From the IMG/VR virus record IMGVR_UViG_3300042445_001485: 64,000 nt of DNA; one strand, written 5' to 3'. Below are positions 12,506 through 56,794 of the stretch, piece after piece. A program made the position numbers and the translations under genes. Under the pieces are notes generated by a model. That model was not told the DNA's origin. It did no database searches and saw nothing but the letters and a program-made list of their open reading frames with translations. Numbering within the stretch: position 1 is the first letter of the stretch; every line of letters begins with the position of its first letter. The DNA is from a virus. Lineage: Duplodnaviria > Caudoviricetes.

Positions 12506-15169
12506 TTACTCAAATGTAAATAGACTATCAAATGTTGATTTGGTGTCAGTGCTAGATAAAATATCCCAATCCAACACACCCAATAGGTTTTCTATCTTTT
12601 GATCTACAATACCTGTTTCCATCAAGTTCTGATCAAACGGCAAATCTTTAAACCATTGTGGTATGTGTGTTTCATCTGTGGGATAACCAACGCTGGTATA
12701 ACCTAATGGATTATCTTTTAGTTTACACACAACAGTTTTCATTCCATCGATGATTTGCAACGAATAGTTATCCCCGTGCATCCTTCTCAGGTTGTTCCAG
12801 TTCATTGCGGCTCTTACATGTCCCGGCATGTTGGCTCGACCTAATCTAGCTTCTTCTGCTGTATATTTGGTTAAATTGTTTACACGCTTGGGAGTACCCT
12901 TTTCCCAGGCTGGTCTTTCTTGGAACGCATACTTGAATTCTTTAATTTTTTCAATTACTTTTTCTCTGGCATCATCGCTGGTTAGCACATCCATGAGAAT
13001 TTCACTTAGGAACTCTTGTACAATTTTAGGAGTGTCACTGCGTTTCAAATCAAGTCCCATGGCTTTTACTTTGCCCGGTTTACCATTCACATCCAAGCGA
13101 TTGTTTTCCATATCGTAGATCAATACAGCATAACGCTTCTTCTTGATAAACAGGCCTTTGCGAGCCACAAGCTCGCGACCACCCATGATGATTGCACCCA
13201 TTTCTCGGGGGCAATGGCAGGCCCGTTCCATAAACCCCGGAAACGATTCGTTCACACCATCAGCGATGGTGTCGTACAGTTGTACAGCAATGTCTTTGTT
13301 CCATTCCATTGCACCTGCGGCTACTTCCGCTTGGACCGCTGGCCACGCTGTAAAGTATACCGAGTCTGTGTCGCCATAGATAATGCTCGAACCAACGTGG
13401 TCGTAGTTGCCTGTAATTGCTTGGTTAACTGTGGCGTCCATGTGCTTGGCAATGATCCTACCAGTAAGTGTCGTACTTTGGCCAATTCGTTGGTCAAAGA
13501 ACCTGCAATGTGGGTTGAGGATAGCCCCGTAGAGCGAATTAAGATTGATCTTTTTAACGAGTTGGCGTTTATCCCAGAATGCTTTGTCTTCAGTAGCTTC
13601 TGCGGTTTTCTTTTTTGCTTGCATTTCTTGTCTTTCTGCATACCACCTTTCTAGCAGTCCGGGAATAATACCCTTCATGTCATATCTAAATATAGTACCA
13701 TTGGCACTGAGTGTCCACGGCTGATTACCATTGAATATTAATCGCCAAACTTCAGCGGCACTATGAATTGTCTCTTCACCGCTTTCCCAATCTATGGTTA
13801 TTTCTGCGCCAAGTTCATTGGCCATCACGGATTGATATTCCAAGGTACCAAACATGTTTTCCCACGCATCAGCAAAAGATGAACCTGCTGCCATCTTTTC
13901 CTTGATGTAGTGGTCGGTCATTGTGGTCCGGAGTTGACCAACGATGGTTTCTGGGCCCATGTTAAGGGCTCTAATAGCCGAGGGGTAGAGACTGTTGATG
14001 TCGATTGCGCCAATGTATTCATGGACGCCTTTTTTGGGATAAGCAACATAGGCACCTGCGGCTTGCGTTTCTCTTGGATCATCTTTGCTCTTTCTATTAG
14101 GAACAATCATACCACGCTGGTGAGCTTCATTAATGATAGCCTGCTCTGTTACTGCAACCGCACCCATTGTGGTTGGTAACAACACCGTGTTGTCGTGAGC
14201 AAGTTCATTGGCCAAGTCCAGGAAGCGAAGCTTCTTGTCCAGTTTGGCCAATAGCATGGTATCTTGTCTGTTATAGTCAATGAACTTGGGAAAGTCCTTG
14301 TTGTACAATTGATCCAGGGTGCCTTCGTAAGCAACCTTACTACCACATTCTTCATACTCACCAATTGCGTCTAGACTATAACTGTGTCGTTCCTCGTAGG
14401 TGTACTTGCGGTACAGTTGCATATAATCCATATGCACCCGACCAGCCAAGTCAAAAGTCAAATTTTCAGCACCAAAGCGTTCAAAGGTTCTTTGCTTGGG
14501 TAATTGTCCCCATAGACAAAAGCGTCTTGTATCATCCTTGCTGAGCACACGAGTGATACGCATCACAGTATAGGGAATATCAAAACCTTCCGAGTTCCAT
14601 CCGCTAAGGATATCGGCATCTTCGATCAAGTCAAGGAATGTGTTTAACATATCCTCTTCTCTTTCAAACAAATAGCAATTGTCGTATCTGTTGCAAATCT
14701 CTTCGGCGGTTTCCCACGAATAGCTTTTTGGTGGAACTACAAGTGTTACTAACTTGTCCATCCAATCCAAGTATATAGATATTGCTGTCACAGGATTAAA
14801 TGGGTCTTCGGGCTTTGAAAAGCCACGCTGGGGATCAAAGTCTACCTCAATGTCAAAAAATGCAGTCTGTAACTTGGGACTGTTTACACCCGAGTAGTTT
14901 CCTTCAAGGCAACGAAATATGGGATTGATATCACTTTCCCACAGTCTCTTACCTGAATTAATTTTCAACTCTTTTTGGAATTCTTTGCTGTTACGACTAC
15001 TAAACCTGCTGACAGGGGTATCGTAAATTGTACGGAATTTGCCACGCGGATCATCATAGTAAAAAATATAATCAGCCGGGTACTCACGATATACTCGTTC
15101 TCCGTTGACTCGCTCAACTATGTGTATCCGATCTTTTGCTCTATCAAATAGAGCATCTACATAACTCAT
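12506..15169 (-). CDS. Family B DNA polymerase (gp43-like)
   Basis: Exonuclease motifs FFDIEVD, GWNSEGFDIPY, YNRQD. Polymerase motifs DINSLYPS, KINLNSLYG, YGDTDS, KKRY. Confidence 0.96.
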   Translation of the reverse strand: MSYVDALFDRAKDRIHIVERVNGERVYREYPADYIFYYDDPRGKFRTIYDTPVSRFSSRNSKEFQKELKINSGKRLWESDINPIFRCLEGNYSGVNSPKLQTAFFDIEVDFDPQRGFSKPEDPFNPVTAISIYLDWMDKLVTLVVPPKSYSWETAEEICNRYDNCYLFEREEDMLNTFLDLIEDADILSGWNSEGFDIPYTVMRITRVLSKDDTRRFCLWGQLPKQRTFERFGAENLTFDLAGRVHMDYMQLYRKYTYEERHSYSLDAIGEYEECGSKVAYEGTLDQLYNKDFPKFIDYNRQDTMLLAKLDKKLRFLDLANELAHDNTVLLPTTMGAVAVTEQAIINEAHQRGMIVPNRKSKDDPRETQAAGAYVAYPKKGVHEYIGAIDINSLYPSAIRALNMGPETIVGQLRTTMTDHYIKEKMAAGSSFADAWENMFGTLEYQSVMANELGAEITIDWESGEETIHSAAEVWRLIFNGNQPWTLSANGTIFRYDMKGIIPGLLERWYAERQEMQAKKKTAEATEDKAFWDKRQLVKKINLNSLYGAILNPHCRFFDQRIGQSTTLTGRIIAKHMDATVNQAITGNYDHVGSSIIYGDTDSVYFTAWPAVQAEVAAGAMEWNKDIAVQLYDTIADGVNESFPGFMERACHCPREMGAIIMGGRELVARKGLFIKKKRYAVLIYDMENNRLDVNGKPGKVKAMGLDLKRSDTPKIVQEFLSEILMDVLTSDDAREKVIEKIKEFKYAFQERPAWEKGTPKRVNNLTKYTAEEARLGRANMPGHVRAAMNWNNLRRMHGDNYSLQIIDGMKTVVCKLKDNPLGYTSVGYPTDETHIPQWFKDLPFDQNLMETGIVDQKIENLLGVLDWDILSSTDTKSTFDSLFTFE

Positions 15170-26396: not shown

Positions 26397-27107
26397 TTAG
26401 GCAATGACCACTGGATGAATATTTAATACGCAACCCGGATGTATCAGTTCCAAAAAGGTAGTTATCCGCGTATCGTTGGCATAAAACCAAATACTCCAAA
26501 AACCATTATATTTTGAATCTAACATTCGTTTAACACCCGGAGAAACTTTAACTTCGTCTGTGCCCATACTCTCTAAATAGTTAAGAATTTGTTGTTTAGT
26601 AGCAACATCACAGCGACCGTCGCGCAGTACAACTTTATATTGATACCCAAATTCTTTCTTGCGTATAATTACACCGTTTTTAAGCAATTCTTGTGTGGCA
26701 TCATCAGCAGGACCCGACACAGATAATAATATAGTTGAGTACTTTGTTTCAATTTGGTCAACCATGTCTTTTAACTCGGTTTCAGTTTCTGTATAAAACT
26801 GTACTTCGGGTTCTTCAATACGCATCTTAATGTGCGGATTGGCATCTTTTAATTCACGAATAATGTGTAGTAATTCTACATCTATAATATCGTTTAAAGA
26901 AGCACCCTTGCCCCAATAACCTCCGGGATTGAATTGCCGGAAATGCCGTCTTGATTCAACAGCTTCAGCATAGTCTCTGTTTTCGTATATAATACGCCCG
27001 CCAGGCACAGACAATTTTATTCGATATAGATATTTTCCAAAAAACTGTTTGGTAGTTTCTTCGAATTGAATCGAATAGTTTTTATTTTTCCAGTACAATA
27101 TATCCAT
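26397..27107 (-). CDS. Hypothetical protein
   Basis: About 236-aa ORF overlapping the end of clpA. Confidence 0.65.
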   Translation of the reverse strand: MDILYWKNKNYSIQFEETTKQFFGKYLYRIKLSVPGGRIIYENRDYAEAVESRRHFRQFNPGGYWGKGASLNDIIDVELLHIIRELKDANPHIKMRIEEPEVQFYTETETELKDMVDQIETKYSTILLSVSGPADDATQELLKNGVIIRKKEFGYQYKVVLRDGRCDVATKQQILNYLESMGTDEVKVSPGVKRMLDSKYNGFWSIWFYANDTRITTFLELIHPGCVLNIHPVVIA

Positions 27108-29376
27108 GCTCATCCACAATAGGGGGTGCTTCGATTACCAGTCTGCTGTCAAAGGTAAATTCTGTTTTGTTCCAGTCTACTGTAATGCTACTGTTGGCAG
27201 GCACACGCTCAAACAAGATCTTTTTACTCAGTGGCACTTTGATCAAATCGTTGATTTTCCTTGCAATAGGTCTAGCACCCATTTTATCATCATATCCAAT
27301 TTCACTCAGATAGTTGATTGCATTTTCTGTAAGTCGTATACGGATATGTTTGTCTTCAAGTAGTTCATTGACTTCGTTAATAAACTTTGCCACCACTTTC
27401 TTAATGCTTAACTTATCTAGTTTATTAAATTTACAGATAGCATCTAGACGATTGCGGAACTCAGGTTTGAAGAAATCTTTAACAGCCTTGTCGTCTTCGT
27501 CTGTTTTATCAACACTACCAAAACCAATTGATTTGCGTTCGTTGTCAGCGGCACCCAAATTACTAGTCAGTATAACAATGCTGTTACGGGCGTCTGCTTT
27601 TTTACCGTTACTACTGGTTACATTACCCTCGTCCATTAATTGTAATAATATATTACTGACATCTGGGTGTGCTTTTTCAATTTCGTCAAACAAAATAACA
27701 GCATTGGGACTCTTTTCTAAATCACTAATTAGCAGTCCGCCACCCAAGTTACTGTCCTCGTAGCCTACATACCCCGGGGGTGCACCGATCAGTTTACTGG
27801 CCGAATGCCGTTCTTGGTACTCACTCATGTCGTATCTTAATAGTTTCATCCCAAGGTTCTCAGCTAACAGTTTAGCAAATTCAGTTTTACCTGTGCCTGT
27901 TGGTCCCAGAAATAAGAAGCTACCAATTGGTTTATTAATGGCTTTTAATCCTGCACGACTGACATAGATTCTTTCTAACACAGAATCTACTACATTATCT
28001 TGTCCGTATAGTTTGGTTTTTACATTGCCTTCTAAGTTATCTAGACTCTTAACTGTCTCTGCACCAATTTGATCTGCTGGTATTTTTGTAAACTTACTAA
28101 TGGTGTTAATAATATCAGCTCTAGTAATAGTCCAATCGTTTTTAATTAATTTAATAGATGCACAGGCAGTATCTATTAAGTCGATTGCTTTATCAGGCAG
28201 TTTTTTATCTGTTTGATATCTAACACTTAGATCAACAGCACTATCTATTGCAGAAGCGTCAATGGTACCACCATGAAACTCTTCAAAGTATTCTTTTAGT
28301 CCACGCAAAATATCTTTGGCAACCGCAGGGGTCGGTTCTTCAACTGTTAATCGATAGAAACGACGCATCAATGCACGATCCTTTTCAAAGCTCTGTGTAT
28401 ATTCAGCCCAAGTTGTGCTGGCAATAACTTTTAATTGTCCTTTGCCCAATGCAGGTTTGATCATGTTGCTAAAATCTACTGAACTTTGTGATCCAGATCC
28501 TGCGCCTTGCATTTGATGAGCTTCGTCAATGAACAAAATACATCGACCTTCTTCAATTAAGGCATCAATGACTTCTCGTACTTTTTCTTCAAACTCGCCG
28601 CGGTACTTACTACCCGCTAGAATAGTTCCTATATCTAGATTATATACTGAATAGTCTTTGAGATAGTTGGGCACTTCACCGTTAACAATGTTTCTTGCCA
28701 GTCCCTCGGCTATTGCAGTTTTACCAACACCAGCATCACCCACCAATAATACATTGCTTTTATTTCGTTTGGCCAATACTTGAGCTATTTCATCTAATTC
28801 AAATTCACGGCCAATGACAGGATCAATTTTGCCCAACTTTGCCAACTCAGTTAAGTTTGTACAATACTCGGCTAATACTCCATTTGATTTAATTTTCCTA
28901 GCCGCTTTCTTCCCATGTGTTTCTTTATAATTTTCGTTATAGAACTCTACTAATGCGTTTCGATCTAAGCCATACTTGATCATAAAATATGCGGCATGGC
29001 TATTTGTTTCAGTGGTCATACTTAAAAATATGTCTACTACTTGTATATGTGTACGACCGCTAAACAATACTTGAGTGAGTGCATGATTAAACATACGCTC
29101 TAGAGCATGTGTTTTTTTAGGCTCACATCCATGTTCTCTACTTATTAGATATTTTTGTGTTTCTAGATAGTTGCCAATATCATCCAGCATTGCATCTATA
29201 TCACAGCCAAATGCCACTAGTAAATCATAAAATGGTTTAAAAGATACCATGCCTTTGAGCAGGTGTTCTAAAGTGACATACTCGTGATTATGTTCTTTGG
29301 CAGAACTAATTGCAGAATTAACAATTACTTCAATTTCGGGATTGGGTTGTATGGTCATCTTGTCGTTGTGAATCAT
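27082..29376 (-). CDS. clpA: ATP-dependent Clp protease ATPase subunit
   Basis: N-domain HEYVTLEHLL, GDAGVGKT/IDEAH, GPTGTGKT/FDEIEK, IGF loop, no ClpB middle domain. Confidence 0.9.
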   Translation of the reverse strand: MIHNDKMTIQPNPEIEVIVNSAISSAKEHNHEYVTLEHLLKGMVSFKPFYDLLVAFGCDIDAMLDDIGNYLETQKYLISREHGCEPKKTHALERMFNHALTQVLFSGRTHIQVVDIFLSMTTETNSHAAYFMIKYGLDRNALVEFYNENYKETHGKKAARKIKSNGVLAEYCTNLTELAKLGKIDPVIGREFELDEIAQVLAKRNKSNVLLVGDAGVGKTAIAEGLARNIVNGEVPNYLKDYSVYNLDIGTILAGSKYRGEFEEKVREVIDALIEEGRCILFIDEAHQMQGAGSGSQSSVDFSNMIKPALGKGQLKVIASTTWAEYTQSFEKDRALMRRFYRLTVEEPTPAVAKDILRGLKEYFEEFHGGTIDASAIDSAVDLSVRYQTDKKLPDKAIDLIDTACASIKLIKNDWTITRADIINTISKFTKIPADQIGAETVKSLDNLEGNVKTKLYGQDNVVDSVLERIYVSRAGLKAINKPIGSFLFLGPTGTGKTEFAKLLAENLGMKLLRYDMSEYQERHSASKLIGAPPGYVGYEDSNLGGGLLISDLEKSPNAVILFDEIEKAHPDVSNILLQLMDEGNVTSSNGKKADARNSIVILTSNLGAADNERKSIGFGSVDKTDEDDKAVKDFFKPEFRNRLDAICKFNKLDKLSIKKVVAKFINEVNELLEDKHIRIRLTENAINYLSEIGYDDKMGARPIARKINDLIKVPLSKKILFERVPANSSITVDWNKTEFTFDSRLVIEAPPIVDEHGYIVLEK

Positions 29377-43608: not shown

Positions 43609-44532
43609 TTATTTGCTAATTTGGCATAATTCGACTAAACAAGCCGAAAGATTGATCTCCGGATCAGCAACCATTGAATGGTTGACCATTCCTTTGCGTA
43701 TTGCTAAAATTGCTTCGTCTTGTCCTTCGGGAGTCTTGCTCCACATCTCAAGGTTGTCGTACATCCAACGGAACATTTCGTTGATGTCTTCCACTGCGGC
43801 CTGTGTGCAAATCACACTACGAGCCTGTCGGATAGCACCCATCTTCATAAAGTTGACTGCTTCCAATTTCCAGTCTTTGACACCACGATCATTTTCACTG
43901 GGTCGGTTCAATGCACCGGTTGTTGTGTTGCTCTGTAATAGATTTAAACATTTACGCAAGTCTGGGTAAGTTGCCTTGACATAGCTATCCAAGGTATCTA
44001 GATCAAATTCCTTGCCTTCTGTGACCAACACAGTTGCGGCTCTGGCAGTAAACTCAGTTACATCGCTTTTGTCAATGTGGAAACTTTGGCAACGACTGTG
44101 TAGAGCATCCATGATTTTGTGTGGCATGTTACAAGTAAAGATAAAGCGAGCTTGACTTGCGTATGTTTCAAGTAATCCACGCATGATGCCTTGTGCCGGC
44201 GGACTCAAATAGTCGGCCTCATCCATTAGCACAACCTTGAATCGACCAAACGGCATGGTCTGCACAAAGCCTTCAACTGACTTCTTGATAAAGTCTACAC
44301 CATTGTCACGACTGGCGTTGATCTGTAGCACATCAAACTCATCAATGCCCAATTCGTTAATCAACACCTTGGCCAGTGTGGTTTTACCTGTGCCTGGGCT
44401 ACCACTTAACAGTATGTGCGGTATAGTACCTTCTTGAACCCACGACTCAACAATTTGTCTTTGATTGGCGTCAGTGAATACATAATCACTGACTGTTTTG
44501 GGTCTGTATTTTTCTGTCCAAAGTTCTTGCAT
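43609..44532 (-). CDS. Clamp-loader AAA+ subunit (gp44/RFC-like)
   Basis: WTEKYRP, GSPGTGKT, INAS, DEAD, SRC. Confidence 0.92.
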   Translation of the reverse strand: MQELWTEKYRPKTVSDYVFTDANQRQIVESWVQEGTIPHILLSGSPGTGKTTLAKVLINELGIDEFDVLQINASRDNGVDFIKKSVEGFVQTMPFGRFKVVLMDEADYLSPPAQGIMRGLLETYASQARFIFTCNMPHKIMDALHSRCQSFHIDKSDVTEFTARAATVLVTEGKEFDLDTLDSYVKATYPDLRKCLNLLQSNTTTGALNRPSENDRGVKDWKLEAVNFMKMGAIRQARSVICTQAAVEDINEMFRWMYDNLEMWSKTPEGQDEAILAIRKGMVNHSMVADPEINLSACLVELCQISK

Positions 44533-44683
44533 CTGTTTCTTCCACTGTTGAATTGCTATTATACACGCTCTGCGCGGTATCGTCAATGTCTTTGGCTTTA
44601 TTCTTAGCAAATATACGATCAAAATTGTTGCCAAATTCTGTTTGACTTACACTAAATGGCCTTGGGTTAGATCCTTTACTCAT
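44486..44683 (-). CDS. Small hypothetical protein
   Basis: MSKGSNPRPFSV...FDRIF. Overlaps the clamp-loader promoter. Confidence 0.5.
   Translation of the reverse strand: MSKGSNPRPFSVSQTEFGNNFDRIFAKNKAKDIDDTAQSVYNSNSTVEETDARTLDRKIQTQNSQ
44558..44586 (-). promoter_or_regulatory. Sigma70-type promoter for the clamp loader
   Basis: TTGACG-N17-TATAAT. Confidence 0.75.
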
Positions 44684-44909
44684 CTTTTAATATCCTTACT
44701 ACTTTTTCTTTTTCTAGTTCTTCTAGCCATTCCTCTTCACCTGAGAAGGTTGAGGTTTTTGCCAGCATTGCATCTACTGCAAATTTTACACGATATAGGT
44801 CTTGTTTACAAGGCCAATTGACATAACCTGTTACATAGGGATCCGTGGCACCGCGATACATCTTTTGGCATTCGCCGATGACTTGGTTGACATTCCAGTT
44901 GATGATCAT
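44676..44909 (-). CDS. Hypothetical protein
   Basis: 77-aa ORF, ATGA-coupled. Confidence 0.6.
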   Translation of the reverse strand: MIINWNVNQVIGECQKMYRGATDPYVTGYVNWPCKQDLYRVKFAVDAMLAKTSTFSGEEEWLEELEKEKVVRILKDE

Positions 44910-46258
44910 AATAGTTTTACGCCTGTAATTATTTCTAGTTCATCGTGCGACATTCCGTTATGAATGTCAATGATTTTTAATCCATTTGGTGTAACTTCTA
45001 GTGTGGCTAGATCGGTATATATACGCTTTACTACACCTCGTGCGGTTACAGGATATGTGCAAGTATCCATTATTTTACTTTGACCATTTTTATCTAAATG
45101 AGTCATTAGAATATAGACATTTTTAGCATAGCGAGCCAATTCCATACTAGCGCCAGGCGCAGGCAATCGATCTGGGTCATCAGTAGCCCATCCTGCAAAA
45201 TCACCATGTGTATCAACCTGGAACGCACCTAGTAGCACATAGTCAATGCGTCCACTGGTAATCATATTAAAACTGTCTACAAAGTCAAATGCAGAAGCAC
45301 CACTGTCCATGGCCAACATAGTGCCATTGGCACCACGCCAGTGTGCGTCCGGTTCTGAGTTATCAAGTAATCTAGCTCTACCCAACATGCCTTCGCTATG
45401 TACAAGTATTTCTTTATCTTGTTGTAGATACCTTACTGCATGCCAGGGCATACCGTAACCTAAATCAACCACACTATTGTCTGGTATATCTCGGGCCACA
45501 CGCTCTGCAATGGCAGAACTTACTTCATCGTGTTCCTGTGCTTTAAGACGAACAACAACAGGTTTTTTTGATTGAACTACACTATCAACAAATATGCCGG
45601 AAGTATGTATGCTGGCAGTATCCATGGCGTCAACTATACGATCTGCTTGAACAACTGTGTGACGGGCGGCACAGGCCATATAATGACTGGGACCACGACA
45701 GGATATTTTATAACCGCAGTTACCAAATCGATCAGCAACATCAGCTGAGATAATTGCTACATCTACATGAATAGCTTCTTCGTAGATATATTTAATTCCA
45801 TTGATAATTTTAAATTCTTTTCCTATTGCATAATCAGTATCTGCACCAACGGCTGTGTAAAATCCAGCTATCCCAGCACTGGATGATCGAACTCGTTCAA
45901 TCATATTTGCTTGCGGCACAACTTCAATTTCCATTTTGCCGGCAGTATATAGATTTTTTGCTATATTAGTTACCTGAGATGCCTGAGTTGCTGTATCAGT
46001 CCCGCGCAGAATTTTTGAATCGAGTTTTATTTTAGGCAAGGCACAGATAAACTTTTTAACACAGCCATTGGGTACCAGCGCCCCACCGAGTATAATAGTG
46101 TTGGCCACTACTGTTAAATTTTTAACACCTTTGCGAACTATTTCGTTGATTAATTCGTTGGGGTGTCCTATGCCCTGAAACCCCGCAACTAAAATAGTGT
46201 CACCATCTTTGATGTGCTTGAGTGCTTCTCTTGCAGATCTAAAAACCTTGTTTATCAT
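44906..46258 (-). CDS. Fused alpha/beta 3-oxoacid CoA-transferase (ScoAB/PcaIJ-like)
   Basis: DGDTILVAGF, GIAGFYTAVG, ADRFGN, DLGYGMP, HSEG (catalytic Glu), LGAFQVD, GASMEL. Confidence 0.87.
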   Translation of the reverse strand: MINKVFRSAREALKHIKDGDTILVAGFQGIGHPNELINEIVRKGVKNLTVVANTIILGGALVPNGCVKKFICALPKIKLDSKILRGTDTATQASQVTNIAKNLYTAGKMEIEVVPQANMIERVRSSSAGIAGFYTAVGADTDYAIGKEFKIINGIKYIYEEAIHVDVAIISADVADRFGNCGYKISCRGPSHYMACAARHTVVQADRIVDAMDTASIHTSGIFVDSVVQSKKPVVVRLKAQEHDEVSSAIAERVARDIPDNSVVDLGYGMPWHAVRYLQQDKEILVHSEGMLGRARLLDNSEPDAHWRGANGTMLAMDSGASAFDFVDSFNMITSGRIDYVLLGAFQVDTHGDFAGWATDDPDRLPAPGASMELARYAKNVYILMTHLDKNGQSKIMDTCTYPVTARGVVKRIYTDLATLEVTPNGLKIIDIHNGMSHDELEIITGVKLL

Positions 46259-46276: not shown

Positions 46277-46699
46277 TTACTCAAACTGAGTTCTCGATTT
46301 GCGTTCTGCCATTACTGCGGTGCTGACAGTATCGTCGATATCAGGCTCGTCGTCGCTGACAAAAATAATACACTTAGGATCTGCTTTACGCAGGGTAAAT
46401 TCTTCACCATCGATTTCGACTTCCATGCCGCGGCTCCATCGACCGTGTTCGATAAACACCCATTGATCAACTCGAATATCAGTTTGATCTGGACCAACTG
46501 CATAAACTCGAGCCCATCGTGGACGAATACCTTCTGTTTTACCATCGTCATTTAATAGGTAAATTCCACTACTAAGTTGGCGACCACCGAAGTTCATGTC
46601 GCGTACAATCACATGATCATGCAGGGCTCGAATACCAGCAACTTGATTGGTTTGTTTGAATTTATTACTTGCTTGAAATAACGGTTCTTCTATTGGCAT
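46277..46699 (-). CDS. GroES-like co-chaperonin (gp31-like)
   Basis: IRALHDHVIV, SGIYL, ARVYAVGP, EHGRW. Confidence 0.75.
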   Translation of the reverse strand: MPIEEPLFQASNKFKQTNQVAGIRALHDHVIVRDMNFGGRQLSSGIYLLNDDGKTEGIRPRWARVYAVGPDQTDIRVDQWVFIEHGRWSRGMEVEIDGEEFTLRKADPKCIIFVSDDEPDIDDTVSTAVMAERKSRTQFE

Positions 46700-46700
46700 A

Positions 46701-47156
46701 TTAGATTCTCGCTGGTCCAACGGGTTTTCGTGGATCCTTAATTAGTTCTTGTTTGTGTACAGTGGCTGAGGCAATTGATGCGGCCAAACTACCCCGCATT
46801 TGTGGAACAGGATCGGCTGGGTTTACTACAGTTTCAATTACCTGATCGTTGTTTTCTTCGGATTGTGGCTCGGGTTGTGGCTCGGGCATAGGTGCTCCCT
46901 GTGACATTCTTGCTCCAGATTTAATTTGTTGTTGCATAATTTCGGCGGTGTTTATTTCAATTGGCACAGGAGTACTTAATTTATTATATGAATCCTGTGT
47001 TTGATTTCTTGTTTCTTTGATTCGCCCGCCGGCGCCAAGTTTATCTCCGCGGGCATTAACCTTCATATTGCCCACAGCAATAGTTTCTTCGTTGGCCACC
47101 CGTAAACTTTCAATATCAATTTGTTTGCCTTGTGCCGTTGTGTAAACTCTACTCAT
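46701..47156 (-). CDS. Hypothetical protein
   Basis: 151 aa with AVGNMKVNARGD. AGGAG SD. Confidence 0.7.
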   Translation of the reverse strand: MSRVYTTAQGKQIDIESLRVANEETIAVGNMKVNARGDKLGAGGRIKETRNQTQDSYNKLSTPVPIEINTAEIMQQQIKSGARMSQGAPMPEPQPEPQSEENNDQVIETVVNPADPVPQMRGSLAASIASATVHKQELIKDPRKPVGPARI

Positions 47157-47177: not shown

Positions 47178-47702
47178 TTATCTTAAAAATTCCTCGATGT
47201 CTAAATCATAATACATGCTGTCTATTTTGTGTACACCAATCAAGTATAACACATAACTGGACACACTACTACCTCTTCCTAGACCCCATACCACAGTATT
47301 TTTTCTCATGGTATCTACAAAATATTTTAAGTATCTTAATAAATTAAATAAATCACGCTCTTGATATAGCATCAACTCTTTGCCAACTCGTTGTAATTTT
47401 GGATCATTATCACATTGGTCCAGTACCCATTGTGCAATATCCAGTTGTTTATATTCTTCGGGCATGTACCAATTTTGTTGTTGCACATGGTCAAACAACT
47501 CCAAAGGCACTTGTTCTTTGTAATCCATGGGAAGGTATCGTTGTACTATGGGAAAGTCACTGTAAGTGACTTCTCTTGCTTGATTATACTGCCCTGGATC
47601 CTCAACTTGAAATCTACTGATGTCCAAGTTGGGATTTTCGTACAGCAACTCAAATAATTCCTCAGTATCTGTATAGGCCTGACCAAATTGATTGTACTTC
47701 AT
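47178..47702 (-). CDS. Stand-alone fragment of DNA polymerase III alpha (DnaE-like)
   Basis: RVGKEL, WGLGRGSSVSSYVLYLIGVHKID, YDLDIEEFLR then stop. Confidence 0.8.
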   Translation of the reverse strand: MKYNQFGQAYTDTEELFELLYENPNLDISRFQVEDPGQYNQAREVTYSDFPIVQRYLPMDYKEQVPLELFDHVQQQNWYMPEEYKQLDIAQWVLDQCDNDPKLQRVGKELMLYQERDLFNLLRYLKYFVDTMRKNTVVWGLGRGSSVSSYVLYLIGVHKIDSMYYDLDIEEFLR

Positions 47703-47947
47703 GAGATATCAATGATGCCTTTGAATCCTTTGCCGTTCTTGTCTGCCCGTGCTTCCATTTCTTTCATCAACTTGTCCTGTCTACGACCAAGTTCATTTTG
47801 ATAGTCTTGCATGAGCATTTGGATCTGCGGAATTATTTGGCTTGGTCCAGATCGATAGGCTTGCCCCAATCGTCTGTTGAGATCATTGAATTTTTTTGCA
47901 AGCTCATCGTCGGATACTGTTGATAAATCTGGGGCAAGTGGGTGCAT
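47699..47947 (-). CDS. Hypothetical helical protein
   Basis: MHPLAPDL after AGGAG, with an early promoter upstream. Confidence 0.68.
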   Translation of the reverse strand: MHPLAPDLSTVSDDELAKKFNDLNRRLGQAYRSGPSQIIPQIQMLMQDYQNELGRRQDKLMKEMEARADKNGKGFKGIIDIS

Positions 47948-47968
47948 AGAAAAACTCCTGGTAACATT

Positions 47969-47997
47969 ATTATATAGCAATGTTGGCCAGGAGTCAA
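47969..47997 (-). promoter_or_regulatory. Sigma70-type promoter
   Basis: TTGACT-N17-TATAAT. Confidence 0.78.
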
Positions 47998-48019: not shown

Positions 48020-49126
48020 TTAACTTAGAGTGATGTTTGCCCATTTGGTGCCGTTATACACCTGTACATTACCTGTGGTATAATTGTACACCGTCATACC
48101 GCTATTGGTTGGAGCGATGGCATCGATTTGTGTTGTGGTCAAATTGGCAAACTGTATTGCACTGCTTACTGTTAAAAATCCCGTGATGTTGGTATTACCA
48201 CTGGCATTGCCTACGTTGATAGTAGTGGCAGCACCAAATGCATTGACTGTGGTAGCAGTGGCATTGAACAATAATACATTAGAGGATGTAGTAACAATGT
48301 TGCCACCATTGGCATTAACATTACCAGTGACTGTAATGCCGGTTGCGGCAAGCACAGTAGTGGTAATTAATCCACCAGCAGGAGTGCTGATGTTGCCTGC
48401 GGTAATATTTCCGGTGACATTCAAATTCTGTGATACTGTGCTATTGTTGCTAACTAGTAAATTACCTAATGTCACATTACCAATGGTTACTGTAGTAAAT
48501 GCACCTGTTCCCGGTGTAACATTACCAATTGCTGTTGCTTGTAGGCCACCTGTGGTGGCTGTTGTGAATACTGCTGTGCCAGGTGTAACATTACCAATTG
48601 CAACTACTTGTAACCCTGCAACATTAGAAATATTACCACTGACACGGATATTACCATTGGCTGTGATCCAACCGCTACCGTCTGGGTCTAGGCTCAGATT
48701 GCCATTGGTCCCTGCCAGGGTAGTTATGTTGTTTGCCACAATATTACCACTGGTTGTGATATTACCAGCAACAATTTCTTGTTGATTTATAGTTATTGTG
48801 CCTGTCTCGTATATGTTACCAGTGACAATCAAGTTACCTGCAATGGTTACATTGGCTGATGCAGTTACATCTCCCAGTAAACTAGAAGTTTGATTTACAG
48901 TAAGATTTCGATCAACATTGGCATAGAATGGGGATACATTGCCACTGGTTGAAATAACAAGTCTAATATTGTTTACTGAGTTTTGTACATCAGTTATTTC
49001 GCTTGACGCAAAACTGAAGTTGTTTAAAATATTGGTAAAATTATCTCGAAAGCCTTGACTGTCGTTGTCTTGGCCAGCAACTGGAAAGTTACCATTAATA
49101 TTATTTGGGTTTATGTTTGATGACAT
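48020..49126 (-). CDS. Virion fibre/baseplate-associated protein
   Basis: Repeated GNIT/GNV beta-helix-like units. C-terminal YNYTTGNVQVYNGTKW. Confidence 0.75.
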   Translation of the reverse strand: MSSNINPNNINGNFPVAGQDNDSQGFRDNFTNILNNFSFASSEITDVQNSVNNIRLVISTSGNVSPFYANVDRNLTVNQTSSLLGDVTASANVTIAGNLIVTGNIYETGTITINQQEIVAGNITTSGNIVANNITTLAGTNGNLSLDPDGSGWITANGNIRVSGNISNVAGLQVVAIGNVTPGTAVFTTATTGGLQATAIGNVTPGTGAFTTVTIGNVTLGNLLVSNNSTVSQNLNVTGNITAGNISTPAGGLITTTVLAATGITVTGNVNANGGNIVTTSSNVLLFNATATTVNAFGAATTINVGNASGNTNITGFLTVSSAIQFANLTTTQIDAIAPTNSGMTVYNYTTGNVQVYNGTKWANITLS

Positions 49127-52100
49127 TAGTTAAATACTCCGATCTTGGGGAACTTAATATATTTATCTCCGGAAACGGGTAACACTTCATACTTTTCCCA
49201 GTATCCAGTCTGGAATGTCCTAGAGGGTAATACAGGTGTAATTGCTTTGTAGTAATTCCCTTGATACAGTACTTTACTATTAATATCGTATGCTACAGCC
49301 TCTACCCATGCAGTTGGTGCAGATATAATAGTTTCAGCAGGACTGTCCCGTAGATCAAAGAACTTAGTTCCATCGCCGTCAAATCTGGTTCTATTCCCAC
49401 TATTCCCATTAAAGGTGATAGTACTAGGAATTCTTCTATACATAGGCACTGTAGCGTCTATGTTGGTAAACGGAATAGTTGGATCATAGGTGTATGAATC
49501 ATAATCTGGGTCTGTTGTGTCTCCCCAGTCTTTGTAAAGCAAGAAACTTTGTCCATAGCTTCTACCGTCTAATACTTTGACCCGTGATCGCAATGGCACA
49601 GATTGTACAAATCCCAATCTAACATTTTCTGTGTCCGGATCTATTTGTATTTCCCATATTCCTGCTCTTTGATTTTGCACATAGTAACCTAAATAATCCC
49701 CAACTCTGATACTGACAGTGAATGAGGAATGACTTTCTAATGTGATGACATTGTTTACTATTCTTGCAATTCTAACCCCGTTGGGTATGCCATATCCAGC
49801 AACAACATTTTCAATTAGTTTTAATCTATCAGCAATAACTACAGGTAAAGTGTCTGCATCAACAGTGATGGTGTTGTTGGTATAATCAACTGCGGTCACA
49901 GTCAGATATGAAGTCAACTTGACAATATTATTAATTGATCCTGTACCTATTGTGGGTTTGCTAAGTGTCAACTGCAACGATAACCCAGAACCAACACCAC
50001 TGGCCACAGACTGACCTACCACTGTGGTATTATAGTCAATAAAACTATTAGGAACTATGGTTTTACCAATGTAATTGACTGCGGAGTACAGAATATAAAT
50101 GTTGGTTGTACCCACAGAAACAGGTGCCAACAATGTGGGTTCTTTGGCATCAATTAGGTATTCAGAGTACCCCGATACTACATACGAACTGTCATATCCG
50201 GTACTGTCGTAATAAGAAATATCAACAGTATCATTGATGTCTGAATAGTTACCAAGATACAAGTCAGTGTAGTATATCCAGCCATCGTCGGGATAACTTG
50301 TATTAAATCCTTCTTGTTGAGCAAAAATCAATCTATCGCCAGTTTTAAATCCGTTCACATTATCTATGCCGCCGTTGTCAAGTATGTGCTGTACTGATTT
50401 ATTATTAATGCTGGCAAATGGCTGTGTGACAGCATAGTTAACTGTGTATACTGGTTTACTAAATTTTATAGCGCCAGCTGGAGTTTGTCCCCAGGCCAGG
50501 CTTGATATAGTGATGGTTGTGTCACTGTCAACAGACACAATGGTTTGTCCGTCGGTAAATCCATTGCCTGTTATTACCATGCCTGTTGATAACCCAACCG
50601 TACTGGTTAAAGTTAAACTGTAGCCGGTTACTCCGCCTGATACATAACTGTAGTAGTAAACATCATTCTGTGATAGGTAATCAAATGTTGTTTCTCTGCT
50701 GGGCAAAAATGCCTGATTAGTAATGTCGTAATAATTGGATAATGTATTGTCTACTAGGTAACGATCAACAGTGTAGTTGATACCTGCCAATTCAATACCT
50801 CGGTCCTGCATACGATATGCAATTTTTTTACTCTCCCCGGATTTGGTGTATGCCAGCACCAAAGCTCTTTTAAACCCTAACACACTTTTATCTTCTTGTA
50901 CACTGGTCATCCAGTCTGGGATAACACCCTGTGCGCTATAACCTAAATTTTGACTGATTCGAGTTTCCATGTTGTCAAATGTGTTTGGGTTGATAATATA
51001 GTGACCCGTTCCCTGTGGATCATAATATGGATTTGCAACATGATTGATGCCACCTGACAGATTAGTTTCTAGTGTGACATCTAAATTTTCTGGATTAAAC
51101 GGATCAACCACTTCGACATAAACCACTTCATACTTGACTGCATAGTCATTGTCTGGGTCTGTGGCAATGGCCGTCTTAACTGGACCGAAGTTAATAACTT
51201 TATTGTAATGATTTTTTTGTATTGCTGAAATGTATGAACTTAAGGTACTAGGATCAACACCGGGCAATTCTAAGAAACGATATGATGATGCTTTGCCAAA
51301 ATTTGGATCATCGTGGCGGTATATAGAATCAATTGGGAATAAACTAGGATCAGCCAATATACTTGTCAACAATCGTCTTTGTTCAATTGGCGGCAGAGCC
51401 TGCATGTAAAGATTTTCATATGGTTTAGCATAAAGATTGTTGATTCTTAATTTGAATGTTTTTGTATCTGCTACAGAATTATCCACCGCAGTGGCTTTGA
51501 CTGTAAATGTGTATATGTTATCAAACTTTGTTTTGTTACCGTCGATTGTGGTTGCATCTGCATCAAGTTGAAAATGTCTAAATGTTGTACGACCTGTAAT
51601 TCTTCCACTTGATAATAACTGTAAACCTTGGGGCAGACTGACTGTGGTAGCAGTCAAGTATTCTGATCCTGTGGCAGCTGATCCATCGTTGAGCGTACCA
51701 TGCACAAGTTGATAAGTTACTTCTTTGCCCAGTGAGTTATATGCAACTATGCTCAACTCGCTGACACCACCATTGATGATATTTCCTGCTACAGTAGGAG
51801 TGTCCCATACAATCTGATTGTTGACATCACCCAGTACAGTCAATGAATAGACCATTGGTTCACTGACTAGATTACCACTGAAAGTTAAATTACCAGCTGG
51901 TGTACTGTTAGCACTTGATGTAATAGATACTGTGTTATTTTCTGTGTATACCCTATACACCTGTTGCCCAGTACCAAATCCATTGCCACTTATTTCCATA
52001 CCAGGGCGAATACCAGCAGTATTGCTCACAATGACATTGGTATTGGGAGATACACCTCCGGCTACATAATTGGCAGTAATTAAATTAAATTGTGGTACTG

Positions 52101-53205
52101 TATTGGCAGCTGTCACATAGAATGTGTAGACTTTCCTGTAATCTATTTGTGTGTCTATATGTCCAGACAACCAGCCAGTGGAGGTGTTGATTGATAAATT
52201 TGGTAACAAACTGGTTATATTACTAGCCCAAGTCAATGATGTTCCGTAAAAATCAACAGCTGAAAACCTAAAACTAAAATTGCTATTTTGTCTTACCACA
52301 GGCAATGAACTAACAGTTGTGGTTACTATGGGTGAATACACCTGATCTGCATCAACAGTGATAAAATTATCGTCAACTGTGTTTATATCATTGTCAGTGG
52401 ACCACGATCCTTTGGCAATAACTTTAATTGTATAAGTTTGCGTATCGTAATTGGCGCCATCAAATACTTGAACGGTAAATGTATAATTTTTATTTAAACT
52501 AGTAGCAGTGGTAAAGTCATAGGGGAATTCTTCGTACTGCTGTGTATAACCAAATGGTTCTGTTGTTACCAAGGAATATGGATTACCATTGCCGGCAAAT
52601 GTCTGACTGCTCGGTACACTGGTATTGGCAGTGGGAGTAAATGCAGTTTGAACCTGTGTTGGTTGTGCATTATAACCTAGTCTACCACTGGTATCTTCAT
52701 CTAGTACTCTTCCAATAAATCCTCTTAGATAACCATCTTCAGTCAATGTCAGGCCTGGTGGTAACGATTCTGCGTCTGACTTGAGACTCCATACCAAATT
52801 GCCTTCACGATTAGTTTCTAGTGCTTGAAATTTATGTTCGATGGGAGTACCATCAAAGTATTCGCCAATTAGCATTGTTTCGGGAGTGATCTGCGGTGGT
52901 ACAATGTTACTGACAGTAAAATTAAATGTACGGTCAACTACCACAACCGGGGTTTGACAACTGGCACGAATTGTAAATTTGTAAGTTCTAGTTTCGTCCT
53001 TGGGCCCAGGATCTGTTACAACCGGTACACCTTGTAGCAGACCAGATCTAACAACTTGTAAACCAGGTGGTAATGTGCCACTTAAAAAAATAAATGTCAC
53101 AGGCGATCCGGTAGGATTGTTGACCTCAAGCGGCAGGCTGTAGAATTCAGCCTCGGGAAACGTTCCTAAGTTGCCTCCGGGAGTAATCCATACCGGTCTT
53201 GACAT
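49126..53205 (-). CDS. Large baseplate-wedge-like protein with Ig-like repeats
   Basis: Repeated LPPGL..TG.L.G Ig-like (He_PIG-type) units. CBM5/12-like WxxxxxY..LYQGNYY near the C-terminus. Confidence 0.72.
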   Translation of the reverse strand: MSRPVWITPGGNLGTFPEAEFYSLPLEVNNPTGSPVTFIFLSGTLPPGLQVVRSGLLQGVPVVTDPGPKDETRTYKFTIRASCQTPVVVVDRTFNFTVSNIVPPQITPETMLIGEYFDGTPIEHKFQALETNREGNLVWSLKSDAESLPPGLTLTEDGYLRGFIGRVLDEDTSGRLGYNAQPTQVQTAFTPTANTSVPSSQTFAGNGNPYSLVTTEPFGYTQQYEEFPYDFTTATSLNKNYTFTVQVFDGANYDTQTYTIKVIAKGSWSTDNDINTVDDNFITVDADQVYSPIVTTTVSSLPVVRQNSNFSFRFSAVDFYGTSLTWASNITSLLPNLSINTSTGWLSGHIDTQIDYRKVYTFYVTAANTVPQFNLITANYVAGGVSPNTNVIVSNTAGIRPGMEISGNGFGTGQQVYRVYTENNTVSITSSANSTPAGNLTFSGNLVSEPMVYSLTVLGDVNNQIVWDTPTVAGNIINGGVSELSIVAYNSLGKEVTYQLVHGTLNDGSAATGSEYLTATTVSLPQGLQLLSSGRITGRTTFRHFQLDADATTIDGNKTKFDNIYTFTVKATAVDNSVADTKTFKLRINNLYAKPYENLYMQALPPIEQRRLLTSILADPSLFPIDSIYRHDDPNFGKASSYRFLELPGVDPSTLSSYISAIQKNHYNKVINFGPVKTAIATDPDNDYAVKYEVVYVEVVDPFNPENLDVTLETNLSGGINHVANPYYDPQGTGHYIINPNTFDNMETRISQNLGYSAQGVIPDWMTSVQEDKSVLGFKRALVLAYTKSGESKKIAYRMQDRGIELAGINYTVDRYLVDNTLSNYYDITNQAFLPSRETTFDYLSQNDVYYYSYVSGGVTGYSLTLTSTVGLSTGMVITGNGFTDGQTIVSVDSDTTITISSLAWGQTPAGAIKFSKPVYTVNYAVTQPFASINNKSVQHILDNGGIDNVNGFKTGDRLIFAQQEGFNTSYPDDGWIYYTDLYLGNYSDINDTVDISYYDSTGYDSSYVVSGYSEYLIDAKEPTLLAPVSVGTTNIYILYSAVNYIGKTIVPNSFIDYNTTVVGQSVASGVGSGLSLQLTLSKPTIGTGSINNIVKLTSYLTVTAVDYTNNTITVDADTLPVVIADRLKLIENVVAGYGIPNGVRIARIVNNVITLESHSSFTVSIRVGDYLGYYVQNQRAGIWEIQIDPDTENVRLGFVQSVPLRSRVKVLDGRSYGQSFLLYKDWGDTTDPDYDSYTYDPTIPFTNIDATVPMYRRIPSTITFNGNSGNRTRFDGDGTKFFDLRDSPAETIISAPTAWVEAVAYDINSKVLYQGNYYKAITPVLPSRTFQTGYWEKYEVLPVSGDKYIKFPKIGVFN

Positions 53206-54877: not shown

Positions 54878-56794
54878 TTAGTTTTCTAATTTCAACATAG
54901 TTACAGTAATAGTAACATTGGCTGTATCAGCACTGGTTACAGTTGCTTTCAGTGGTATATTGGTATTGGCCGTGTTCTCGTTGTTAAATCCGTATACCGC
55001 CGGAGTAAAAAATTGTGTAATATTTCCCACATTAATAGTTTGGGCAATGATGCCTGTTCCTGTTGGTGGCGTTTCTCCAACCAGTCTGGAATAGTCTGTT
55101 ACTCGTGCCGCAAGATTGGAATATATTGTTACCCAAACATTGGCCGTTGTATTGGCTGAAGTTCCTATGCTGTATAATGCATAACCTTTAAAACCAGTTA
55201 TGTTGATGTTGCCACCCACATTAGATGTTAACACAGTTGGTGTAGCAATCACGGCTGTTCGGGAAACAGTCAACGCAGTAATAGCATCTGCTTGAACACC
55301 TGCATTACTAGTCCATGCAGTTGTGACGGTGCTGTTTTGTGCATCAACATATGACTTCATTGAGGTGTTTGCTGTGACAATAGCGGCATTGGCACCAATT
55401 ATAGAATTGTGTTGCGCTAATGCATTACCAGTCAATGCAGTAATGGCATCTGCTTGTACACCGGCATTGCTGGTCAATGCAACTATAGAATTGTGTTGCG
55501 TGGCCGCATTGGCCGCAACGTTTGCAATAAGAACATGTGTAATTGCAACAATGTTGCCTTGTAGTATGCTAATGGCATCTGATTGTACACCGGCATTGCT
55601 TTGTAGACTAGAAATGGCATCTGCCTGCACCCCGGCATTGCTGGCCAATGCAGTAATCAATCCCGCTTGACTTGCGGCATTGCTTTGTAGACTAGAAATG
55701 GCATCTGCCTGCACCCCGGCATTGCTGGCCAATGCAGTAATCAATCCCGCCTGACTTGCGGCGTTGGCAGTCCAGGCAGTGGTAACGGCTGAATCCTGTG
55801 CATCCACATAACTTTTCATTGCTGTATTGGCTAACACAATTGCGGCGTTGGCACCTGTGACCCAACTTTGTGTGGTTGATATTTGTTCGTCAGCATATGA
55901 CTTTAGAGCAGTATTGGCTGTGACAATGGCCGAATTACTGCCAGTAATCTTACTTTCTAAATTGCCCAACCAGGTTACCATTACACCACCAAAACTAGCA
56001 TTGTTGCTCAATGCTGTGCCAATTTCAAGCAGGGTGTCTAGTGCAGTAGAAGCACCACCGGTTAGTGTGGTAAACCGTGTGTCCACATAACTGGTCAATG
56101 TTGTACTGGCCGTGGTTATTTGGTAGTCGGTGTAGGCTTTTAATGCTGTGTTGCCTGCTTCCCACCCATAGGTTCCTGCATCAACATAATTCTTCATTGC
56201 TGTGTTGGCAGTAATAATTGCCGCATTGGCCCCTGCTATCTGATTTGCTTGAGCACCTGCGTTTGCAGTCCATGCTGTGGAAATTGCAGAAGTTTGTGCA
56301 TCAACATAGCTCTTCATTGCTGTGTTGGCTGACACAACAACAGCGTTACCAGCACTGACTCTGCTGGTTAATAATATGTTGCCCAGTTGCAAGTTGTCTA
56401 CATCTACATCTCTACTGTATTGACTAGATTGTAGTGAGCTAATTTGTCCACGAATGGAAGCGAGATCTTCGGCAGCAATGGCAGTTGAAATTTGTGTACC
56501 AATTGCAGTAACATTAGGCAATAAACTGTTGACATAAGTTAAATTGGCATAATTAGTCAAGTTGTTTTGTACAATGGTGCTGACATTGCCAATGCTGACA
56601 GCGCCGGGTATATCATTGATGGTCAAAGTGACATTGCCTGACCGAGCATTTATGCTGTATACTCCAGCAGTCAAGTTGCCGCCGACCAGTGAAACTTGGT
56701 AGAAGTTTCGATTTACCTTATCAAATGCAACACGCAATGAATCACCAGAGTGATCTCCTGCGGTTACACCTAAATTAATGTTAGCAAAGCTCAT
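54878..56794 (-). CDS. Coiled-coil fibre protein
   Basis: N-terminal GDHSGDSLRVAF anchor, ANTAMKSYVDAQ and SNAGVQADAI repeats. Confidence 0.75.
   Translation of the reverse strand: MSFANINLGVTAGDHSGDSLRVAFDKVNRNFYQVSLVGGNLTAGVYSINARSGNVTLTINDIPGAVSIGNVSTIVQNNLTNYANLTYVNSLLPNVTAIGTQISTAIAAEDLASIRGQISSLQSSQYSRDVDVDNLQLGNILLTSRVSAGNAVVVSANTAMKSYVDAQTSAISTAWTANAGAQANQIAGANAAIITANTAMKNYVDAGTYGWEAGNTALKAYTDYQITTASTTLTSYVDTRFTTLTGGASTALDTLLEIGTALSNNASFGGVMVTWLGNLESKITGSNSAIVTANTALKSYADEQISTTQSWVTGANAAIVLANTAMKSYVDAQDSAVTTAWTANAASQAGLITALASNAGVQADAISSLQSNAASQAGLITALASNAGVQADAISSLQSNAGVQSDAISILQGNIVAITHVLIANVAANAATQHNSIVALTSNAGVQADAITALTGNALAQHNSIIGANAAIVTANTSMKSYVDAQNSTVTTAWTSNAGVQADAITALTVSRTAVIATPTVLTSNVGGNINITGFKGYALYSIGTSANTTANVWVTIYSNLAARVTDYSRLVGETPPTGTGIIAQTINVGNITQFFTPAVYGFNNENTANTNIPLKATVTSADTANVTITVTMLKLEN
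55592..55759. repeat. 84-bp near-perfect tandem duplication within the fibre gene
   Basis: GGCATTGCTTTGTAGACTAG...GACTTGC at 55592 and 55676, one mismatch seen. Confidence 0.88.

Follow-up and report, generated by a model that had tools for sequence, protein, structure and literature searches.

The closest described counterpart of the gene studied here is the "minimal split Pol III alpha" of group 2.2 jumbo phages, a computational prediction by Iyer, Anantharaman, Krishnan, Burroughs and Aravind (2021, Viruses 13:63, PMC7824862), which includes an N-terminal NTP-binding unit, the same as the one found here. In the paper on phage CBB this unit appeared as a 'truncated' 172-aa DnaE (PMC5259590), and in the paper on Atu_ph07 it was listed as Pol III alpha. 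In the literature searched, we found no study that tests either half by biochemical or genetic means. A C-family polymerase is likewise produced from two distant genes in the case of the cyanobacterial intein-split DnaE-n/DnaE-c. There, the protein is split much later in its sequence, and the split-intein pieces ligate the two halves.

We analysed a window of 64,000 nucleotides (IMG/VR virus record IMGVR_UViG_3300042445_001485) that comes from an uncultured phage. At 47178..47702, on the minus strand, both the ORF listing and the raw sequence contain an intact, stand-alone ORF of 174 aa, which starts with ATG and whose product ends with ...YYDLDIEEFLR; the TAA stop (47178..47180, minus strand) follows EFLR directly, a position kept across the family. 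This gene is the N-terminal unit of the group 2.2 split minimal Pol III alpha, already known as a prediction, and is called the N-unit below; in a split minimal Pol III alpha-like enzyme, its product would be the half that binds the nucleotide. It matched phrog_11127 (171 positions) from end to end (E 2.4e-41), the family of Atu_ph07 gp316, GAP32_323, MIJ3_00130 and CBB_328. As in the group 2.2 N-units (about 170-177 aa), we found a stand-alone homologue, about 170 aa long, of the GS-motif-containing start of the palm, with the GRGS motif and a conserved EFL[KR] end located before the Mg-binding DxD strand, in a jumbo phage of the T4-like group 2.2 that encodes an RFC-type clamp loader as well as a family B polymerase. 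These phages and the window also have in common the order of the genes (N-unit, phrog_14844, GroES-like gene, gp44), and nothing essential differs between their N-units and the window copy.

The relationship of the N-unit to DnaE was evident at the level of profiles and single sequences. Pfam PF07733 (DNA_pol3_alpha) matched it with an E value of 7.6e-9 and 36 bits, against a curated cut-off of 23.9, with residues 101-173 covering positions 22-94 of the 260 positions of the profile, which is the start of the model only. In a phmmer search of the PDB, residues 108-173 were aligned with residues 327-392 of E. coli Pol III alpha, and residues 101-173 with residues 382-454 of the Taq enzyme, while the full-length DnaE family phrog_405 was matched at 366-429 (E 2.7e-7). 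The ORF, the PF07733 match and the PDB alignments confirm what the first-pass annotation had reported, namely a 174-aa DnaE fragment that carries the GRGS motif and ends with YDLDIEEFLR. It had also placed the stop just before the catalytic motif, and the E. coli dnaE gene sequence, in which FERFL392 is followed by NPERVSMP-D401-F-D403-V-D405-F, agrees with that: the last residue of the N-unit is equivalent to N393, eight residues short of the first catalytic Asp. In contrast to canonical DnaE, in which the Asp triad (E. coli D401, D403 and D555) is present on one polypeptide, the N-unit does not contain this triad, and its residues 1-63 are not the N-terminal PHP domain.

AlphaFold2, run on a 44-sequence alignment of the N-unit, gave a model with a mean pLDDT of 90.1, and the first ten matches of this model in Foldseek were all C-family polymerases. 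Residues 64-174 (47181..47513, minus strand) were superimposed by VIA-align on C-family polymerases only, with Z scores of 9.4-11.9 and an rmsd of 1.9-3.3 Å over 97-107 residues. The superimposed parts were residues 270/271-393 of E. coli alpha (Z 9.4-10.7, rmsd 2.6-3.3 Å, about 100 residues), residues 303-413 of M. tuberculosis DnaE1 (Z 11.9, rmsd 1.9 Å, 97 residues) and residues 287-455 of Taq. In terms of the model, residues 64-174 are the start of the DnaE palm, from E. coli residue 271 to the loop before strand P-beta2. The conservation of the N-unit was concentrated in this DnaE-like part. Residues 1-63 (47514..47702, minus strand) form a variable N-terminal extension, which folded confidently in the model (pLDDT 87-92), but is poorly conserved in sequence and stayed outside every structural match; no counterpart of it was found in DnaE, and an Atlas feature search with residues 1-66 gave nothing informative. 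The P-beta1 segment (approximately residues 135-144) was not a strand in the model of the stand-alone N-unit, as would be expected if the sheet of a partner were needed.

In ternary complexes of E. coli Pol III, residues R362, G363 and S364 on P-beta1 lie less than 4 Å from dGTP, the R362A substitution abolishes the activity, and metal B is held by D401 and D403 on P-beta2 (bioRxiv 10.64898/2026.06.29.735100). Residues G140, G142, R143, G144, S145 and S146 of the N-unit, which are invariant in its 44 homologues, are aligned with this region, with E. coli G359, G361, R362, G363, S364 and G365, respectively. The GS motif R143-G144-S145, which corresponds to E. coli R362-G363-S364 and is invariant in 44/44 homologues, is encoded by AGA GGT AGT at 47268..47276 (minus strand). 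Judging from its sequence, the N-unit keeps the triphosphate- and sugar-binding loop, without a metal ligand. One contact is different. E. coli R390 also lies within 4 Å of the dNTP, and the R390A enzyme is 27-fold less efficient (bioRxiv 10.64898/2026.06.29.735100), whereas the position of R390 is occupied by a nearly invariant Glu (E171) in the N-unit, with the terminal K/R174 as the only basic residue nearby. This replacement counts against a polymerase function.

The N-unit was found by tblastn in 105 of the 50,697 phage records searched. Among them, Rak2/121Q/GAP32/CBB-, PA5oct/MIJ3-, Atu_ph07- and SCTP-2-type jumbo phages carry it as a short stand-alone gene, and a few further records, e.g., those of Clostridium phages, matched it too. 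In Atu_ph07, MIJ3 and GAP32 the annotation contains it as a gene of 169-177 aa. IMG/VR contained at least 106 N-unit loci; the identity to the window N-unit ranged from 87% (the nearest relative) down to 45% in the 80 loci examined, and was 36-54% in cultured phages. EFL[KR] followed by a stop formed the end of the ORF in nearly all of about 80 IMG/VR loci and in the three cultured phages, and the same end was seen in relatives down to 35% identity. When the N-unit profile, built from 44 homologues, was run against 1.84 billion cluster representatives (50% identity), the number of clusters matched was 371 at E<=1e-30, rising to 939 at E<=1e-10. Among the 371, the best 150 were all 95-222 aa long, and in each the match extended to the last part of the profile, close to or at the C-terminus of the protein.

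The comparison of the window N-unit with its nearest relative (locus L004) gave a dN/dS of 0.07 (dN 0.078, dS 1.11), and the values in four other unsaturated pairs were 0.06-0.125. Clearly, the N-unit gene is a strongly conserved, real gene and not a truncation. The fixed length and stop across relatives, together with the low dN/dS, exclude decay, recent truncation, frameshift and read-through. This bears out the first-pass annotation, which had seen neither decay nor an intein nor a frameshift into the next gene: dN/dS across homologues (about 0.06-0.13) indicates purifying selection, not neutral decay, and the end is shared by more than 80 relatives; no full-length dnaE was found at this locus in relatives; and the next gene (46701..47156, minus strand) is unrelated, is preceded by its own AGGAG-ATG and does not encode DxD.

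The same annotation had proposed a naturally split family-C nucleotidyltransferase, of which this gene would encode one piece, the partner being encoded elsewhere in the genome. In the 64-kb window such a partner, here called the C-unit, was not found by regex, tblastn or HMM. We rely on complete relatives for it, in which an ORF opening with a DxDxD DnaE palm was sought and a gene of 190-196 aa was found. In a relative with a 356,865-bp record (G001, 100% complete), the scan of ORFs for the DnaE motif order gave one ORF, located at L102:8088-8675 (minus strand) and encoding MKFKSDIDIDF...HNTGV...KLDFL...RPAK...YAFKKSHSCAY. In the complete relatives the C-unit has the start M(KFKS)DIDIDF, followed by KLD, RPA/G and FKKSH. 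Residues D6, D8, D10, H37, G40, K69, D71, R140, P141, H173 and Y177 are invariant in its 38 homologues, and correspond, in the same order of motifs, to E. coli D401/D403/D405, H511..G514 (HAGGV), K553/D555, R639/P640 and Y754-x-F756..H760; these equivalents were read from the sequence, and the roles of the residues were taken from the ternary complex study (bioRxiv 10.64898/2026.06.29.735100). As with the N-unit, the dN/dS of the C-unit was low (median 0.055 in 18 pairs).

The C-unit is phrog_11778, and also matched the full-length DnaE family phrog_405 at 772-809 (E 1.1e-5). As the N-unit matched phrog_405 at 366-429, the two are colinear. Sequence and profile searches of Pfam and the PDB with the C-unit gave no match, and its homology to DnaE follows from the phrog_405 match, the order of motifs and the fold. 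Its AlphaFold2 model had a pLDDT of 87, and the top of the list of structural matches contained C-family polymerases only: Taq 458-837, PolC 968-1295, M. tuberculosis 416-807 and E. coli 561-780, with Z scores of 6.4-7.5, as compared to 3.3 for the best unrelated chain. The C-unit does not contain a thumb, and the distance from D6 to H37 is 31 residues versus 110 in E. coli. Its fingers have roughly half the length, and the basic residues of the index finger, R709/K714/K715, do not have a clear counterpart. At the C-unit locus of Atu_ph07 (NC_042013.1 58304-58879), the RefSeq CDS, gp074, starts 81 nt downstream of the start of the tblastn match; its start was probably mis-called, and the annotated protein apparently lacks the DIDIDF strand.

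When the structural models of the two units were placed on Taq, the N-unit covered residues 287-455 and the C-unit residues 458-837, leaving a gap of two residues. By sequence, the counterpart of K/R174 in the N-unit is N393 and that of M1 in the C-unit is R396, which leaves just P394-E395 missing. Of the viral records with an N-unit, six are rated by CheckV as 90% complete or more (G001, G002 and G004-G007), and all six contained the C-unit, as did Atu_ph07, MIJ3 and GAP32; it was missing only from some fragments (39-80% complete). Among the phage records searched by tblastn, it occurred in 96, compared with 105 for the N-unit, in near-identical sets of genera and with equal tallies for both units in Escherichia (34/34), Pseudomonas (11/11), Erwinia (8/8) and Salmonella (8/8). 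Its presence in complete relatives and the tiling of the models support the proposed split of a family-C nucleotidyltransferase. The two genes were never adjacent in relatives, being 33-227 kb apart, and the neighbours of the C-unit gene were those for a DnaQ-like exonuclease, UvsW, primase and gp41-helicase. In GAP32 (NC_019401.1), the gene for the DnaQ/Pol III epsilon-like exonuclease (208050-208895; locus L200) is located about 5 kb from the C-unit gene; the phages with this exonuclease have no PHP domain to which epsilon could bind, and it may act for the family B enzyme or for the mini Pol III.

In contrast to intein-split DnaE, the phage ORF is flush with the end of the DnaE-homologous part, and its partner starts five residues before DIDID, with M(KFKS)DIDIDF and no split-intein halves at the junction. 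The first-pass claim that no intein is involved thus stands: nothing extends beyond the DnaE-homologous part, which excludes an intein, and the phage halves must stay separate. A fused form of the two units was not found in relatives, nor among the best 150 of the 371 clusters, all of which are of at most 222 aa. The only longer N-unit relative found, P0001 (a JGI metagenome protein of 360 aa), was rejected as an N+C fusion: its N-terminal 195 residues or so are unrelated and it ends with EFFKT; it represents either a merge of gene calls or a real N-terminal fusion. Searches of five relative genomes for other parts of Pol III alpha gave the N-unit only in the case of PF07733, and only sub-threshold matches, two of them inside the C-unit, in the case of PF17657. 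A 13-bit PF07733 match in GAP32 (56579-56737) was discarded as noise, as it spans two unrelated genes with stops. PF02811 (PHP) was absent from the five genomes, with 14/14 controls positive, and no further palm or complete finger domain was found in them.

Taken together, these results make it likely that the N-unit and the C-unit form a non-covalent, two-subunit minimal Pol III alpha-like polymerase (family C, Pol-beta-fold). What supports this directly is homology, exact tiling, the conservation of contact residues, purifying selection and co-occurrence, from which we infer the physical association of the units, DNA polymerase activity and an accessory role beside the family B polymerase. 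[quoted passage not shown] The C-unit (about 195 aa), encoded in the distant cluster of replication genes, would pick up the DnaE sequence two residues later and provide two metal-binding Asp residues (DIDID) and the HxGV strand, the third Asp and a K553-like Lys for the primer phosphate (K-x-D), a contact to the templating base (RPA/G) and the helix-loop-helix of the fingers (Y-x-F-K-K-S-H). The edge strand of the N-unit is predicted to join the beta-sheet of the C-unit, which would rebuild one active site. The pair would function without a PHP domain, a thumb, and a clamp-binding or OB part, and the candidate roles for it are repair, gap filling or the synthesis of one strand beside the family B enzyme. 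With no thumb, fingers of about half the length and no clear equivalent of R709/K714/K715, processive templated synthesis is not assured.

With DnaE (E. coli, Taq and M. tuberculosis DnaE1) and PolC, N-unit residues 64-174 share the fold of palm residues 271-393 and its motifs, including R362-G363-S364. In contrast to these polymerases, the phage enzyme is devoid of the PHP domain, thumb, beta-binding region, OB domain and tau-binding region, its catalytic Asp residues are on the other polypeptide, R390 is a Glu, and there is an extra N-terminal extension of 63 residues. No version of the bacterial replicase core is known that is smaller than this family C polymerase of about 370 residues, which is spread over two genes far from each other, and this split mini Pol III coexists with a family B replisome of the archaeo-eukaryotic type. 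If it is active, the enzyme would set the minimal catalytic unit of Pol III and would be relevant to the origin of the family, and it could serve as a compact scaffold for enzymology. To the existing prediction, our analysis contributes the tiling of the two structural models, with a gap of two residues between them, a break point that is fixed across the best 150 clusters, and the one-to-one mapping of dNTP-contact residues on the 2026 ternary complex with the R390 to Glu change, as well as the N-terminal extension and the conserved phrog_14844 neighbour.

The lack of a thumb, the halved fingers, the missing clamp-binding motif and the replacement of R390 by Glu would also fit a composite Pol-beta-fold nucleotidyltransferase that is not a templated DNA polymerase, but makes primers or untemplated tails, or acts on nucleotides for the modification of DNA or for signalling. 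A complete proofreading family B polymerase is encoded in the window, and relatives carry a primase, which is in line with such a function. However, the contacts to the templating base (RPG) and to the nascent base pair (Y-x-F-x-x-x-H) are kept, and the C-unit gene lies among the genes for primase, helicase and a DnaQ-like exonuclease. We consider this explanation quite improbable.

It seems very unlikely to us that the N-unit alone is a non-catalytic module, a decoy or regulator that binds components of the host or phage replisome or nucleotides, even though its gene is far from that of the C-unit, in another operon and beside a GroES-like gene, and even though the protein has its own folded extension of 63 residues. 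The invariance of the N-unit is centred on the GS motif of the catalytic site, it is strictly paired with a C-unit that retains all metal ligands, and its P-beta1 segment is not a strand in the model of the N-unit alone, as in a piece that needs the sheet of a partner. A decoy of the host replisome, put forward in the first-pass annotation as an alternative, is thus unnecessary and agrees poorly with the invariant GRGS and the strict pairing. Finally, the label 'truncated' in older phage papers (CBB, PMC5259590) would suit a dnaE remnant or a piece joined to another by frameshift, read-through or intein trans-splicing, but this has practically no chance of being right and is refuted by the same length and stop down to 35% identity and in the best 150 of the 371 clusters, by the low dN/dS (about 0.1), by an unrelated downstream gene with its own Shine-Dalgarno sequence, and by the EFLR end and a partner start five residues before DIDID, which leave no room for intein halves.

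The two-subunit polymerase would obtain its N-unit from an operon of its own. Upstream of the N-unit gene there is an 82-aa gene (phrog_15348; 47699..47947, minus strand), whose stop overlaps the N-unit start (ATGA), and the two are probably co-translated. In the ORF listing the phrog_15348 gene starts with TTG at 47980 (47699-47980), with a promoter-like site inside that ORF. The ATG at 47947 is the likelier start, as the promoter-like site is followed downstream by AGGAG-N7-ATG, and it is probably the real one. The site itself (TTGACT-17-TATAAT; 47969..47997, minus strand) is of the sigma-70 type and agrees with the consensus at 11/12 positions, a consensus match only, upstream of AGGAG and ATG 47947. 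It is likely the promoter of the N-unit operon, which suggests that the operon is driven by the host RNA polymerase. A T4-type late promoter, TATAAATA, was not found near the N-unit gene.

The mini Pol III could be a specialised enzyme rather than a redundant replicase, with its activity set by the assembly of separately expressed units, although we regard this reading as rather doubtful. The N-unit, expressed from its own sigma-70-type operon, would then be supplied to the C-unit made together with the replication genes. The extension of 63 residues, the Glu in place of R390 and the loss of the thumb would fit an unusual job, such as the filling of short gaps, the hand-off in primer extension or synthesis on modified DNA.

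On the other side of the N-unit gene, the gene of 151 aa (phrog_14844; 46701..47156, minus strand) has its own AGGAG and starts 21 nt past the N-unit; the absence of DxD from its product was mentioned above. The first 50 or so residues are conserved (E about 1e-12) in Atu_ph07 gp315 and GAP32_324, each of which is encoded directly after the N-unit. This neighbour has been retained throughout the clade, and it could have a functional link to the N-unit. The order of the N-unit, a small hypothetical gene, a GroES/gp31-like gene and the gp44 clamp-loader gene is common to Atu_ph07, MIJ3 and GAP32. In the window, the latter two encode a GroES/gp31-like co-chaperonin (46277..46720, minus strand; PF00166, E 2.5e-5; phrog_931) and a gp44/RFC-type clamp-loader ATPase (43609..44634, minus strand), which is the context of a T4-type replisome. 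The family B DNA polymerase (12506..15169, minus strand; PF00136, E 4e-38), with a 3'-5' exonuclease domain (PF03104, E 1.5e-18), is the main polymerase of the phage; the first-pass annotation was right in stating that the phage already has PolB.

In contrast to the group 2.2 gene order, a gene for a 450-aa CoA-transferase (44906..46258, minus strand; PF01144, E 3.7e-58, in two stretches; no PHROG match) is inserted in the window between the GroES-like gene and gp44, where no such gene is present in Atu_ph07, MIJ3 and GAP32. Its product looks like fused A and B halves, and it may be an auxiliary metabolic gene. The window also encodes a ClpB/ClpA-type double AAA+ chaperone of 764 aa (27082..29376, minus strand; PF07724, E 7e-54, with Clp_N and ClpB_D2-small). 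A 368-aa protein with GN(I/V)T-type repeats (48020..49126, minus strand), which gave a weak bactofilin-like beta-helix match, is encoded downstream of a 1359-aa ORF (49126-53205) without a family, and is probably a fibre or another virion protein.
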